Positions 5,262 to 54,781 of a DNA stretch of 64,000 nucleotides are shown here, piece after piece. The DNA comes from a virus (lineage: Duplodnaviria > Caudoviricetes), in the IMG/VR virus record IMGVR_UViG_3300030330_005834, positions 32,001-96,000 of that record; one strand, 5' to 3'. A model generated the notes under the pieces. The model was not told the DNA's origin. It did not search any database and saw nothing but the letters and a program-made list of their open reading frames with translations. A program made the position numbers and the translations under genes. Every line of letters starts with the position of its first letter. The first letter of the stretch is position 1.

Positions 5262-6035
5262 ATGGCTCACATTAGCTTTTCTGAGGCAAAAAACTGGAAC
5301 TTTTGCCCCTTTTATCACAAATTAATGAACCTAGACAAGGTAAAAGGCTTCCAAGGCAACGCTTTTACCGCTTTTGGTAATGCCATCCACGACACTTGTG
5401 AGAAGATGATGACCGAGGGTTTAGACGACAAAAAGTCGTTTTTTGACCTAAAATTCAAGGAAATCCTTGAAAATCTGCCTGAAGATGCCAATAAAGACCC
5501 TAAATTGGTCAATTCTATGAAAAATCAAGGTCCTTTGATACTAGATGAGGTACTTCCCGCCATGGAAGAGCACTTTGGAGAGTATGAAGTCCTCGCCGCC
5601 GAGGAAGATTTGATGGAATTGATTGAAGATTTCCCTTGCGAAGAGAAAAATAAGTTCAAAGGCTTCATTGACTTGGTTATTAAGACCCCTGACGGCAAAA
5701 CACACATCATTGATTGGAAAACTTGCTCTTGGGGCTGGGATGCAAGGCGCAAAAGCGACCCAATGATGACATATCAGCTTACTTTCTATAAGCATTACTG
5801 GGCGAAGAAGCATAATGTTGATCCAAAGACGGTAGAAACTCATTTCGCACTACTTAAGAGAACCGCAAAGAGCGACAGAGTAGAAATATTTCGTGTGACA
5901 AGCGGAAAGATAAAAACTCAAAATGCACTTAAATTTCTTGAAAAAGCAATTTATAATATTGAGAAGAAAAACTTCATTAAGAACAGGCTTGCTTGCCGCA
6001 AGTGTGAATTTCACAAAACGGAACACTGCCCATGA
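5262..6035 (+). CDS. PD-(D/E)XK nuclease, Cas4/AddB-like with Fe-S cysteines
   Basis: ISFS..KNWNFCP, FGNAIH, E.., KGFIDLV, IIDWKT, YQL.FY and C-terminal CRKCEF....C. Confidence 0.85.
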   Translation: MAHISFSEAKNWNFCPFYHKLMNLDKVKGFQGNAFTAFGNAIHDTCEKMMTEGLDDKKSFFDLKFKEILENLPEDANKDPKLVNSMKNQGPLILDEVLPAMEEHFGEYEVLAAEEDLMELIEDFPCEEKNKFKGFIDLVIKTPDGKTHIIDWKTCSWGWDARRKSDPMMTYQLTFYKHYWAKKHNVDPKTVETHFALLKRTAKSDRVEIFRVTSGKIKTQNALKFLEKAIYNIEKKNFIKNRLACRKCEFHKTEHCP

Positions 6036-54300: not shown

Positions 54301-54781
54301 TGGAAGCACAGGGTATGGAAACTCCCCTTTCAAAAGTTCATCTTCCGATATTAAATGGATGGTGTTCAAAGTCAAGAAAAGAGGAAAGAACAATTACTTT
54401 AATGTAACAAAGAAATCAGAAAAAGCACTCGGATTCCCATTCACAACAGATGCGGAATTGGCTCAGTTTTCTTCTGTGCCCAATAAAGAACTTAACTACA
54501 GCTACAATTGGCCATATGATTTCTTCTCTCTCGTAGAATTAGCACAATTGGAGGTTGGAGTTGATATCACTCCGAAACCAATAAGCCAAAATGCCGCTCA
54601 ATTGGCAGCCCTCGCACAAGCCGGAGGAAATTCAGCAGCAACAGCGCAGGACTCCGATGCTCCGGTTGGAGCAACGACACAGATTACGGATGGATCTGAG
54701 AGTACGTCTACAATGGGAACCGATACTGTTGGAAAATCCACAACCGATATTGATTCTATTGGGGCTTTAAAGCCATTTTAA
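45323..54781 (+). CDS. Giant (3152 aa) baseplate wedge protein, gp7-like, with LamG/ConA-like domains
   Basis: LamG motifs TVEFW, DWNHYAFV, KLYINGNL, FDEFRFW, YFKFNEG and a second degenerate LamG; gp7-like NNL.FILKSKGTEKSLR.LIRCFG. Confidence 0.7.
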   Translation: MVKGFKGPKVTKASSLFKKYKASVYNAPKSLVSSSFNKISREIESPAYAEAFLKDRSRYKPNVDFTNPANFARFGSAEEYYKKSIENIYKTYPYDGSLKEKYEWHNSSSYFDNYFFEYEYPRTNGFISIGQTYVAAGTAADDGVDKIVEPTNPQYISIKGGPHGPQAPAYDANFSKQLDYTDSDFKANIYNPTSSQTQNLSIDAPNGNTVEFWMKLPLEPSKSQTSPSHAYFDLWNGSTGKTSTGTYGRFLVETRLNRTLNGSYIEDSIFHLTYMSGTSGVERAKIGPTTLSGAYNIDLSDWNHYAFVAQNHPTGSHHLELKLYINGNLIDTVHTGSQFSAVTQGPFNANIGAYRYNPASNLTVTNGEGSLSGSSFDEFRFWKFARTEKEINKNWFTQVAGGSNTDYGSVDSKFSGSSFPVDLGVYFKFNEGITGYGSQDSVVLDYSGRVSNGTYNNYPAASAEAVRFTDSAIVSASAADREFKDPIIYNNHPTVVSLTSDKTAQGLEYDTRNSMSIYSMMPQWILDEDSQKSTFQIKKLSQIIASYFDELYIQTQQLKDLKNETYISGSVSGSVYKPIPFANRLLENRGFVAPELFSTADVLPFLANRDDVREYKTELVNVKNQIYTNIYNNLNFILKSKGTEKSLRNLIRCFGVDDDIYALSFYANNAEITLNQSITPKIITKNFANFATASNFNALVYQSTASSNTNSAMYITGSSKSSGFDASIGFTVETDVIFPAKLDIENPRAAERDYTALSSSLFGMHAAEPAPSDEGDTSWAAENYGNFQVYAVRERNSQLGIGQAYSADEIKFVLTGTNVNATTEACIPFLTSSTFEDVYDDEKWHFAVKVVPTSYPNLGIVSGTSGYTVEFHGYNTQADIVANSFVLTGSVTSGDLVLASKKRLYIGAHRTNYTGSLICGSDTKISSCRYWALPLEKDEIVSHAIDASNHGLFDSMESAYLFQNFKVNVPKIRTLALNWDFATVTGTDADGEFVVQDFSSGSGDSVFRKDLSDLLLKQHTGRGLFFHPSSTDAISKQHVFSYKQQVPENLDISDTVKIINKDQEFFTPRTRPTTFSFAVEKSMYQSISEQMLNFLACSAEASGLENLVGDPVNKYRSEYKLLKKIREIFFERVGNTPDLDTYLEYFQWLDTAIGKMINQMVPASSEVDSLSNVVESHIFERSKVQHRFPTFENALGDPSGTISGINHLMYNWQYGHAPISGEDQGVNCLWWSKKATRDDASLLVGNSAVDTNRQEIHSASLQVFNRKFNSPYRITAKEGTGPLKTKYNKRSIVLTETQPFDNTRTITYDTTTFSTSSVVCSDEDKINPNLKRSAHYQVQLNDATNTQSKYSNTLVSPYTFFSSSVTTAATGVPAGFQAGPDHLRDYYLDTKDVPAQGPFTRQHVGGNQYRNIGFVWKPAQINGPTEPRKDTRPEAWFALATLAGGNLYYTIINPSYFGSSFTRANFTRDFIAKSPVNIKNIKTDTTTLSSSYGSIVSIGNYAKNYEIVQIPDRSINNRYLAENNGIPTASTASPSVFGLKDYTVPDRGKHASIMVNRFSAPGGPEVNSPGYLDYESETFSVYNALPFRNLTVRQPLKGWLTKHSAFGGYDSEYGSPSASYHKVQRNGAKKIKYSEARVYGVAENITTSSVYDNYWVQHMIPQSDLQYSWITASAISAPFGYSQPDANNASEASTDISFVEASEHGSYILNSDKKRYYGINKYSSGLDGTNRYGFVPVDFVGLNTNFYNIYDFSLNTITHTNRNTSIVNGGYVSLNHAGGRIGIPAKLNAINLRRNGAGGFSSWKQVRQSYHPIVRYNNKNNLITLATSSVVKFADNGSILKERTIAHFREPPVTFCYKPLKHTLTLKNGDDVDVKHTYANNLHTFNSKRINQLIDFETDRSEEVYEDLKRIYLDQDLGEWSPISQFKSLNYREIVYPSKKHAALAKTRERENYTVSSGSDNFNLRLGDSVAFWKDNINDRLRAEGVAKNAQNTTIFSASAPIGMIDLSIWPLDAEEPFFNWYLVSGSAVGGTNAGFDPYFWSPLGPSGAFMRPDLEPKWNDVMKNGELSYAGWLFTLYDLNLDGKFRKGGSTDRGPITNTRAYQGGSSGCRVTASFQYEYPNLVWSGSFPYGTPTQTRFVDGFASGSGEGQEFVTLQSSASLHLIPPYRADVLSGRAPWYNSYEDFAEDIRLMGKDYSIIPEFKISDHIAYYLDNGSSAENNKFLDLIGSTLSSTSSATTELAPFNKQFVRLYSNSDFMSKFAEIKQDHKKGSTATPSRITLKVNAIKKLLPYNGFYPALRAVQLGHLFSASYAPFLSGSSNYTDAEAPMERLAALYQPFFAPGIFFNTIKSGIAVDYSVHTGSVPGTLNMVADVSPIGGIQYQKFLGVDSPFSASNICLNLIAQEPNYAFPFEAILNPNRYLPLTASQNSLTDADIAFGTGYSSGSVHFIYPHFSGSLLGKPQADGFSEPWFASSTTATDGRTKADIFFTWNGQSDIKYSLAANNFFAEVSEFFLERKSPTSFVSKQEKDFKPMVSGSVYVMDVVLSKTDDFVSYEGPSGSFEYHPYSGSNAPNVLHIQAFGSGRGPGQALPGSNRGNPKVSARGMHYGPPYVAEFQMLSQQNIESAYFEDPCFAIHTPPYFYGDAVARIEFRPHEVRDMKPAEGQSLPESAKFTLQEILANSKMSTKYFNTNKRAKAFQQPTFYASYAAGRKQMHISSSVDLFGSITLKQVEYSSKKDDEGNFVADGVNTTVLQDSQDAWVIESKFECPSINLHDMDVASLGAASGLGREALYTRGLWKGYGQPPTGSAGIFLQLRESAVQRQSSAFLNPDAPVFLTGSLIDICGFEASKERVGEIASSREISEAVVAIPMNSNGEFYNIDPAMFLQQLVNVNNGDPAIKQGQFEAPSDITETSISHMIKMMKKYIVPPQFDPIKNASASPVVMYIFEFTHTLSKTDLSYIWQNLMPDIAMKAEKDSSIIQHDVRSKYEFFGSTGYGNSPFKSSSSDIKWMVFKVKKRGKNNYFNVTKKSEKALGFPFTTDAELAQFSSVPNKELNYSYNWPYDFFSLVELAQLEVGVDITPKPISQNAAQLAALAQAGGNSAATAQDSDAPVGATTQITDGSESTSTMGTDTVGKSTTDIDSIGALKPF

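Follow-up and report, generated by a model that had tools for sequence, protein, structure and literature searches.

The stretch of DNA analysed here (the window, 64,000 nucleotides) corresponds to bases 32001–96000 of a 106-kb viral contig from IMG/VR (IMGVR_UViG_3300030330_005834) with a CheckV completeness of ~60%. It carries a 21-kb cluster of glycosyltransferase (GT) and nucleotide-sugar genes, followed by a baseplate module in which two large proteins are strongly enriched in the tripeptide [S/T]-[G/A]-S. An initial annotation of the window linked the two and proposed that the phage O-glycosylates its own virion proteins at this motif. The + strand carries nearly every gene, including the sugar cluster with its promoter, the sigma factor gene and the baseplate genes described below.

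Gene content of the sugar cluster

The cluster (6032–27229) encodes five GTs supported by Pfam and ~15 enzymes of sugar synthesis and tailoring (Pfam, NCBIfam). A PD-(D/E)XK nuclease gene (5262–6035; Pfam 6e-17) serves as a synteny anchor ahead of the two core glycosyltransferases, GT4-1 (6032–7288; Pfam Glycos_transf_1, 1e-16) and GT4-2 (7307–8578; Pfam 9e-11), the latter with an intact EX7E motif. The next gene encodes a 535-aa protein (8578–10185) with a C-terminal GT2 domain of the GT-A type (Pfam, residues 293–440). ESM Atlas neighbours of its residues 1–290 include Glycos_transf_1 clusters, and this half is possibly GT-B-like, which we treat as a lead only. The protein is 86–96% identical in the relatives G002 and G003 and gave zero matches in a tblastn search against phage records. 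It is followed by a WecB-type UDP-GlcNAc 2-epimerase (10182–11177; TIGR00236, 240 bits, above the cut-off) and a 258-aa protein (11167–11943) with an RFSDGE motif near its N-terminus. In the ESM Atlas, the latter scored 0.97 to viral clusters with 12–18% GT-D or GT-D-like members, and the Pfam GT-D-like profile matched two of its four homologues weakly (E = 0.039). A profile search of PDB sequences returned no match, and the AlphaFold2 (AF2) model, built from a four-sequence alignment, was poor (pLDDT 51). The 258-aa protein may thus be listed as a candidate GT-D-like transferase, a weakly supported lead.

The region at 11944–22884 forms a tailoring and transfer block (Pfam, NCBIfam). It comprises genes for a GNAT acetyltransferase, an FkbM methyltransferase, a truncated DegT aminotransferase, two unassigned open reading frames (ORFs), a formyltransferase, RmlC, a full-length DegT aminotransferase, a GT11 enzyme, a second FkbM methyltransferase, a Glyco_trans_1_2 protein, an Fcl-like short-chain dehydrogenase/reductase (SDR), a protein with a C-terminal FkbM domain (the third of this type in the cluster) and another SDR. 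The block for activation of nucleoside diphosphate sugars (22865–27229; Pfam, NCBIfam) adds an unassigned 137-aa protein, a kinase resembling RfaE domain I, a small Mpo1/DUF962 membrane protein, a further SDR, a nucleotidyltransferase, a HAD phosphatase, a cupin and an RmlB-type 4,6-dehydratase. The kinase, nucleotidyltransferase, phosphatase and cupin together make up a split heptose-type activation set.

The initial annotation had counted about seven GT-like genes, with GT-D among their types. Five stand with Pfam support: the two GT4 enzymes, the 535-aa protein through its GT2 domain, GT11 and the Glyco_trans_1_2 protein; the other two, the 258-aa protein and the N-terminal half of the 535-aa protein, are weak leads. 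Its statement that the cluster has no exporter was borne out. No Wzx, Wzy, ABC-exporter or phosphoglycosyl-transferase family was found among the cluster ORFs (Pfam, NCBIfam), and the 106-kb contig, at ~60% completeness, showed no large polytopic membrane ORF, flippase, polymerase, ligase or initiating transferase. The sole strongly hydrophobic segment in the cluster belongs to the Mpo1-like protein.

The cluster is part of a near-gapless operon, as judged from tabulated intergenic gaps, which runs from a sigma-70-like promoter (4149–4177; TTGACA, 17 nt, TATATT, matching 11 of 12 consensus positions) and a tRNA-Met(cat) gene (4189–4265) at its head. To the right, the constant border of the variable sugar island is a gp55-like sigma factor gene (27978–28664) that is kept in all relatives. 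The initial annotation had called this gene a late sigma factor, and it has a weak PHROG match (phrog_234, E = 1e-4). The heptamer CTA[AT]TTA occurs 10–60 nt 5' of structural-gene start codons (positions 28683, 41089, 41536, 54802, 63317 and 63334) and is absent upstream of the sugar operon. It was found 13 times in 64 kb against ~28 expected by a rough composition estimate, with 6 of the 13 occurrences in short intergenic leaders, and may serve the gp55-like sigma factor as a late promoter.

The [ST]GS motif in distal baseplate proteins

The baseplate wedge genes at 41118–43374 comprise a gp25-like gene (41118–41519; Pfam GPW_gp25, 1e-11) and a gp6-like gene (41569–43374; tblastn to annotated baseplate wedge proteins), and they mark the module as that of a T4-like myovirus, with large distal baseplate or fibre genes next in order. 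The first of these encodes a 649-aa protein (43374–45323) modelled by AF2 as an Ig/FN3-like beta-sandwich array (pLDDT 81.6), with Foldseek matches to Ig/FN3 arrays and phage structural proteins. The second encodes a 3152-aa giant (45323–54781) that contains a LamG/ConA-like domain (Pfam Laminin_G_3) and stands where T4 has its gp7-type giant baseplate protein.

The enrichment of a Ser/Thr motif in virion proteins next to the cluster proved stronger than the initial annotation had claimed. [ST][GA]S occurs 38 times in the 3152-aa protein (8.9 expected, z 9.6) and 8 times in the 649-aa protein (2.3 expected, z 3.9), and in an unbiased tripeptide scan SGS and TGS were the top frequent words. Across the whole contig, only four proteins are enriched, namely these two and two 390-aa paralogues encoded past the end of the window (contig 96346–98694), all with a 5–8-fold excess of [ST]GS. 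Neighbouring virion proteins are spared: the gp6-like, 3168-, 1411- and 1059-aa proteins have 0–2 [ST]GS sites, at or below expectation, and the gp25-like and gp6-like proteins have none. In the 3168-aa protein, [ST]GS is found twice (2.0 expected), with a mild excess of [ST]AS (6 versus 1.6).

The specificity of the motif was assessed in the pooled enriched proteins of four lineages with ~30% mutual identity: the window phage, the IMG/VR locus L012, and the cultured phages immuto and Mel-JY01. The ratio of observed to expected counts was 5.1–8.3 for [ST]GS and 2.7–3.5 for the weaker variant [ST]AS. It was 0.8–2.8 for [ST]GT, 0.3–1.5 for [ST]G[A/N/D/G], and 0.3–2.1 for [ND]GS, [AG]GS, hydrophobic-GS and charged-GS. 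This pattern, in which a hydroxyl residue is followed by a tiny one and then strictly by Ser, looks like a recognition motif rather than a generic turn. Its context is hydrophobic at positions −2, −1 and +3. The motif codons are varied and match background usage, so that selection acts on the protein level; an artefact of a DNA word, such as a restriction-site-like word coding for GS, was rejected on this ground.

The sites are dispersed singly in folded beta-sandwich proteins, and seven of the eight motifs of the 649-aa protein begin in loops at or directly after the end of a strand in the AF2 model. The proteins that share the motif are unrelated to each other (Ig/FN3 arrays, the LamG domain, the 390-aa paralogues, annotated fibres and spikes). 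Homologues of the 649-aa and 3152-aa proteins were taken from IMG/VR; a tblastn search with both against cultured phages gave none. All eight IMG/VR homologues (29–77% identity) are enriched, with z values of 7–14 for the giant and 3.8–10.6 for the preceding protein. About half of the 89 motif columns are common to homologues, 30 are found in at least five of the nine sequences, and the flanks are variable.

Relatives, island distribution and genomic setting

The gp6-like protein is 30–32% identical over its full length to proteins from Flavobacterium phage vB_FspM_immuto, Microcystis phage Mel-JY01 and the uncultured phage LR756508, with weaker kinship to cyanomyoviruses and several jumbo phages; the gene order gp25–gp6–giant is also seen in S-WAM1, Atu_ph07 and XacN1. 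The source of the window is a T4-like aquatic myovirus within a large environmental lineage, whose cultured members are immuto, Mel-JY01 and, more distantly, Rhodothermus phage RM378. The designation of the source as a jumbo phage was not upheld, the contig being 106 kb at ~60% completeness and the cultured relatives 130–190 kb.

GT4-1 is ~32% identical over its full length to proteins of immuto, Mel-JY01 and LR756508, and 31% to that of RM378. Its matches among PDB sequences were BshA and then the chlorovirus GT4 enzyme B736L, the second-best solved structure; the search did not return GtfA or GtfB. An alignment of GT4-2 across six lineages contains 67 invariant columns with EX7E kept, and G280, E281, G282 and E289 are invariant in alignment A1. 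GT4-2 was not found in LR756508, S-WAM1, T4, Atu_ph07 or XacN1. In the relatives G010, G012, G013 and G021, the match to GT4-2 falls within a frame of 657–688 aa versus the usual ~425 aa, and GT4-2 is predicted to be fused to an extra domain in some lineages.

The order of PD-(D/E)XK first and GT4 gene(s) next is the same in immuto, Mel-JY01, LR756508 (GT4-1 only) and the IMG/VR relatives G006 and G007, and the arrangement PD-(D/E)XK–GT4–GT4 is present in each close relative whose contig spans the region. What follows it is hypervariable between close relatives. In immuto, there is an 11-kb sugar cluster; in Mel-JY01, a GT-A enzyme, a methyltransferase and a GT2 enzyme without sugar-synthesis genes; in RM378, the GT4 pair stands alone at the locus. 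The contigs of several relatives start or end at or in the island (G001, locus L019, at WecB; G015, L128, inside the sugar genes), and that of G011 (L126–L127) ends 1.7 kb past the sigma gene, which suggests strain-level hypervariability that disrupts assembly.

The island of G004 (L028:2722–9404), located after the GT4 pair, encodes a weak MptE/Maf-like protein, a fusion of HMGL-like and CMP-type cytidylyltransferase domains, a P4H-type 2OG-Fe(II) oxygenase, Gmd and a DegT aminotransferase, a kit suggestive of perosamine-type and CMP-activated acidic sugars. Its 258-aa Maf/MptE-like protein and its 543-aa protein, the HMGL–cytidylyltransferase fusion, were considered as counterparts of the 258-aa and 535-aa proteins of the window and rejected, with no similarity found in either case. 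P4H-like 2OG oxygenases occur in two lineage members, at L035:1571–2170 in Mel-JY01 and at L028:5116–5802 inside the glycan island of G004, making protein hydroxylation chemistry beside the glycosylation genes possible. Distant GT4 homologues also lie inside head-morphogenesis modules of siphophages, with the order major capsid protein–GT4–methyltransferase–GT2–neck in phiPsal1 and portal–GT4–methyltransferase in S-CBS4, a hint that this GT4 neighbourhood often has virion-linked roles.

The motif follows the gp6 lineage. In the 10 kb downstream of gp6, the ratio of observed to expected motifs was 3–8 in ~47 of 52 further IMG/VR loci of the lineage, and it was ~1 upstream. In immuto and Mel-JY01, the motif is enriched in annotated fibres and spikes as well as in the proteins that follow gp6; RM378 shows moderate enrichment, with 18 sites versus ~2.4 expected across five proteins. 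The motif-enriched phages with enough sequence all carry both GT4-1 and GT4-2. No enrichment was detected in T4, S-WAM1, Atu_ph07 and XacN1, which are without GT4-2, even in their giant baseplate proteins of 3300 to >6300 aa. Together with the composition-preserving shuffles, these four controls reject a generic composition effect of fibre and baseplate proteins. Three relatives in which the motif seemed to occur without the GT genes (G011, G015 and G016) were not usable as such cases; their contigs break at or in the island or lack the upstream region.

G006 (80% complete) and its relative G007 are the only sublineage without a sugar island. Their locus reads PhoH, PD-(D/E)XK, GT4, GT4, 0.8–0.9 kb, and then a Zn-ribbon and the sigma gene. 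Their motif ratio is 1.0–1.6, as against 2.8–8.3 in 14 contigs with islands of 7.6–20.5 kb, and nearly all motif sites are lost. To quantify site retention, we used the 20 sites conserved in the clade of the window, 12–13 of which can be aligned in each distant orthologue. At ~33% identity in all cases, G006 kept 1 of 13, G011 6 of 13 and L012 7 of 12. Since G006 lost its sites at a divergence similar to that of the others, the fold does not require the motif, and the sites were lost in concert. The covariation of motif and GT genes expected from the initial annotation is thus seen in part: enrichment goes with the GT4 pair and is absent from the four controls without GT4-2, with G006/G007 and LR756508 as exceptions.

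Several other genes of the contig are of interest in their own right. A 331-aa adenylosuccinate-synthetase-like protein encoded upstream of the window (L003:1387–2382, contig 19387–20382; Pfam 5e-87 in two stretches) has ~100 aa fewer than cellular PurA, in line with the length of a PurZ, and raises the possibility of 2-aminoadenine (Z) DNA in the phage. L003:13137–14288, extending into window 1–288, encodes a member of the tubulin/FtsZ family whose C-terminal domain is TubZ-like (Pfam), in a phage estimated at only ~175 kb. Auxiliary genes (window 767–4140 and L003:9974–11107(−)) encode a ClpP-like protease, a stand-alone cytidylyltransferase-like protein, a minus-strand trypsin-like protease, a PIN–PhoH fusion and an S-adenosylmethionine-lyase-like protein. 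The window holds three tRNA genes, Arg-tct (664–738), Leu-taa (1852–1935) and the Met-cat gene described above; a listed ORF at 4233–4577 overlaps the last of these, and its TTG start is doubtful. Ahead of gp25 (28981–41071) are genes for a 530-aa protein, whose match to a VanY-like peptidase is weak, and for the 3168-aa protein, which has a weak SH3_3 match and one hydrophobic segment at residues 2003–2034.

Proposed virion glycosylation and competing explanations

Of the single explanations considered, virion O-glycosylation at the [S/T]-G-S motif accounts best for these observations, and we give it a probability of roughly 40%. We infer that the GTs act on proteins and that the motif is their acceptor. 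Under this proposal, two soluble GT4 enzymes would form the conserved core of a cytoplasmic protein O-glycosylation system aimed at the phage's own tail apparatus. The hypervariable island would supply nucleotide sugars of ManNAc type, N-formyl or N-acetyl 4-amino-6-deoxyhexose type, 6-deoxyhexose or fucose type and heptose type, and would provide methyl and acyl decorations as well as extra transferases that elaborate the glycan. The acceptors would be Ser/Thr residues in the context hydrophobic-hydrophobic-[S/T]-[G>A]-S, in loops directly after beta-strands of Ig/FN3/LamG-like domains, and the target proteins those distal to gp6, that is, the 649-aa and 3152-aa proteins and the two 390-aa paralogues. 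For the receptor-binding end of the virion, the resulting glycan coat may provide shielding, stability or tuned adhesion, and it could diversify much like O-antigens.

More tentatively, this would be a new cytoplasmic O-glycosylation system with a strict [S/T]-G-S sequon in an abundant aquatic T4-like lineage that infects several host phyla. It would coat the receptor-binding end (distal baseplate, fibres and spikes) with hypervariable methylated and acylated rare sugars, and sequon density would co-evolve with the island.

Motif specificity, site conservation, the confinement of the motif to proteins distal to gp6, the lineage pattern, the joint loss of island and motif, the lack of export and lipid-carrier genes, the siphophage head modules with distant GT4 homologues and the published nucleoside analysis of immuto DNA (below) favour the proposal of the initial annotation, and several observations weigh against it. 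LR756508 has GT4-1 without GT4-2 together with sugar genes, yet its motif enrichment is weak, and RM378 is moderately enriched with a GT4 pair that has no adjacent island; the motif does not perfectly follow either the pair or the island alone. The GT4 pair is still intact in G006/G007 (in G006, GT4-2 keeps 60 of the 67 invariant residues, with EX7E present), which implies that it serves some purpose for which dense [ST]GS is not required. No one island gene is common to all motif-positive lineages. The correlation of island size with the motif is weak (Spearman 0.49, p = 0.057) and uncorrected for phylogeny, and the comparative pattern as a whole goes in the predicted direction but involves few lineages, is phylogenetically confounded and is not fully consistent. 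The sugar operon lies behind a sigma-70-like promoter and not the late-type CTA[AT]TTA of the structural genes. Finally, the virion location of the motif proteins is predicted from synteny and fold only; PHROGs gave no label for any structural protein, the sigma factor being its sole match. A viable alternative, considered next, adds to these points.

The cluster could instead remodel a glycan of the host cell envelope during infection (the O-antigen of lipopolysaccharide (LPS), a capsule, an S-layer or another glycoconjugate), with the motif being unrelated. The phage would then use the undecaprenyl-phosphate carrier, initiating transferase and exporters of the host, for example to block superinfection or to change lysis or adsorption. 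We consider this rather unlikely, and viable nonetheless. The gene content resembles that of O-antigen and capsule loci (RmlB/C, WecB, DegT, formyl- and acetyltransferases, GT2/GT4/GT11 and the heptose-type route), the island varies and breaks assemblies between close relatives as surface-polysaccharide loci do, the promoter type suggests early or middle expression, and in G006/G007 the GT4 pair persists although the motif is gone. Membrane-spanning segments are dispensable for GTs that work on lipid-linked intermediates, for which reason the absence of export genes from the phage is not decisive, even though no initiating transferase, flippase, polymerase or ligase was found on the contig. 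Conservation of the GT4 core and its synteny across phages of Flavobacterium, Microcystis and Rhodothermus, hosts from different phyla, would be odd for a host-specific surface polymer and fits a phage-borne target better. Nor does envelope remodelling explain why the motif co-occurs with GT4-2 and why island and motif were lost together.

The O-antigen and capsule loci themselves share with the window RmlB/C, WecB, DegT, acyl-, formyl- and methyltransferases, GT2, GT4 and GT11 enzymes, a heptose-type route and island-like hypervariability. Unlike them, the window contig lacks an initiating phosphoglycosyl transferase, a flippase, a polymerase, a chain-length regulator and an ABC exporter, and its locus has a fixed syntenic place within a T4-like genome of the lytic type.

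Less probable still is a motif that is functional in a way other than carrying glycans (assembly, binding of a chaperone or partner, or another modification), with the cluster working elsewhere and the co-occurrence with GT4 genes reflecting shared ancestry. Strand-to-loop junctions with hydrophobic residues at −2, −1 and +3 are a typical structural context, and the motif-positive phages may be one deep clade, in which a single origin could explain the correlation. That GTs and motif are separable is apparent from G006/G007 and LR756508, and [ST]GS is not enriched in the head proteins of the siphophages that have distant GT4 homologues. Against a structural role, G006 does without 12 of 13 conserved sites at equal divergence, so its fold is independent of them. 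With a turn preference, one would not expect so sharp a distinction between Ser and Thr at position 3, or between S/T and N/D/G at position 1; this specificity and the site loss in G006 make a generic beta-turn preference unlikely. Moreover, unrelated proteins share the motif and neighbouring virion proteins are spared.

Hypermodification of phage DNA by the GTs, which would place glycans on hydroxymethylated pyrimidines or another modified base to evade restriction and which the initial annotation had named as an alternative, is very improbable: phage GTs are known to attach a variety of glycans to DNA (Pyle et al., bioRxiv 10.1101/2023.12.21.572611, as cited in PMC12619734), the cluster comes after a nuclease gene and a sigma-70-like promoter, and the contig is only ~60% complete, but we found no thymidylate-synthase-like hydroxymethylase in G000, G002 and G004, no C5 DNA methyltransferase in G000, G014, G006, G004 and immuto, and no Tet/JBP match in a search without a positive control, the DNA of immuto_2-6A contained only dA, dC, dT and fdPreQ1 by LC-UV-MS/MS, without a glycosylated nucleoside (PMC10516641), and a kit of ~25 genes for several rare sugars goes far beyond known DNA glycans.

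Virion O-glycosylation as proposed here can be set beside known protein glycosylation systems. In the serine-rich repeat protein (SRRP) system of streptococci (GtfA/GtfB plus GT-D/DUF1792), a tandem cytoplasmic GT4 pair is likewise combined with elaborating transferases, which in the window may include a GT-D-like one, and the acceptor is of S-x-S type ([ST]-[G/A]-S here versus S-[A/V/E]-S repeats). GtfB is the non-catalytic member of the GtfA/GtfB pair, whereas both GT4 enzymes of the window keep EX7E, and the second looks catalytic. Where SRRPs have long low-complexity repeats as acceptors, those proposed for the window phage are isolated motifs in folded beta-sandwich domains. The window phage has no accessory Sec system, and the GT-D match is weak. 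The likeness to GtfA/GtfB plus GT-D is at most functional.

Giant viruses provide another parallel, the glycans of the chlorovirus capsid protein Vp54 and of Mimivirus fibrils being made by virus-encoded rare-sugar pathways. Like the window phage, they combine a nucleotide-sugar pathway of their own with cytoplasmic GTs independent of host export, and use rare amino, deoxy and methylated sugars. Unlike it, they infect eukaryotes and glycosylate capsids or fibrils, the sites in chloroviruses being atypical N-linked ones, and homology to the window GT4-1 (B736L) is at the level of the GT4 family only.

In mycobacteriophages, glycans are reportedly carried on C-terminal extensions of capsid and tail-tube subunits, in contrast to the strict tripeptide in dispersed internal loops of distal baseplate and fibre proteins that is the candidate here. 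Virion glycosylation of mycobacteriophages is already known (Freeman et al. 2023, Cell Host Microbe, as cited in PMC12619734) and has been demonstrated, whereas that of the window phage is proposed. The two would have in common phage-encoded cytoplasmic GTs for their own structural proteins, with no export machinery and with GT cassettes that vary between relatives. The window phage differs in also encoding a large nucleotide-sugar factory and in the absence of sequence homology: a tblastn search of GT4-1 against 50,697 phage records returned no Mycobacterium phage at E < 1e-3. The initial annotation held the link between a sugar cluster and a specific sequon to be new; phage virion glycosylation as such is not, and the sequon and the tail-apparatus target would be. 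A literature search returned nothing on glycosylated tail proteins in this phage lineage.

The three cultured relatives, immuto, Mel-JY01 and RM378, make virion glycosylation directly testable. Even if it is wrong, a sharply specific [S/T]-G-S motif that is gained and lost in concert is an unexplained, lineage-wide feature of tail proteins. If it is true, the motif would be the first glycosylation sequon to be defined for tailed phages, the baseplate and fibres the first such apparatus with a glycan coat, and the enzymes a new cytoplasmic O-glycosyltransferase/sequon pair for glyco-engineering. It would also explain the 10–20 kb of "LPS-like" sugar genes found in many environmental T4-like phages, which are usually dismissed as host-manipulating auxiliary genes, and would offer a new view of host range, adsorption and escape from defence and grazing in marine and freshwater phages.

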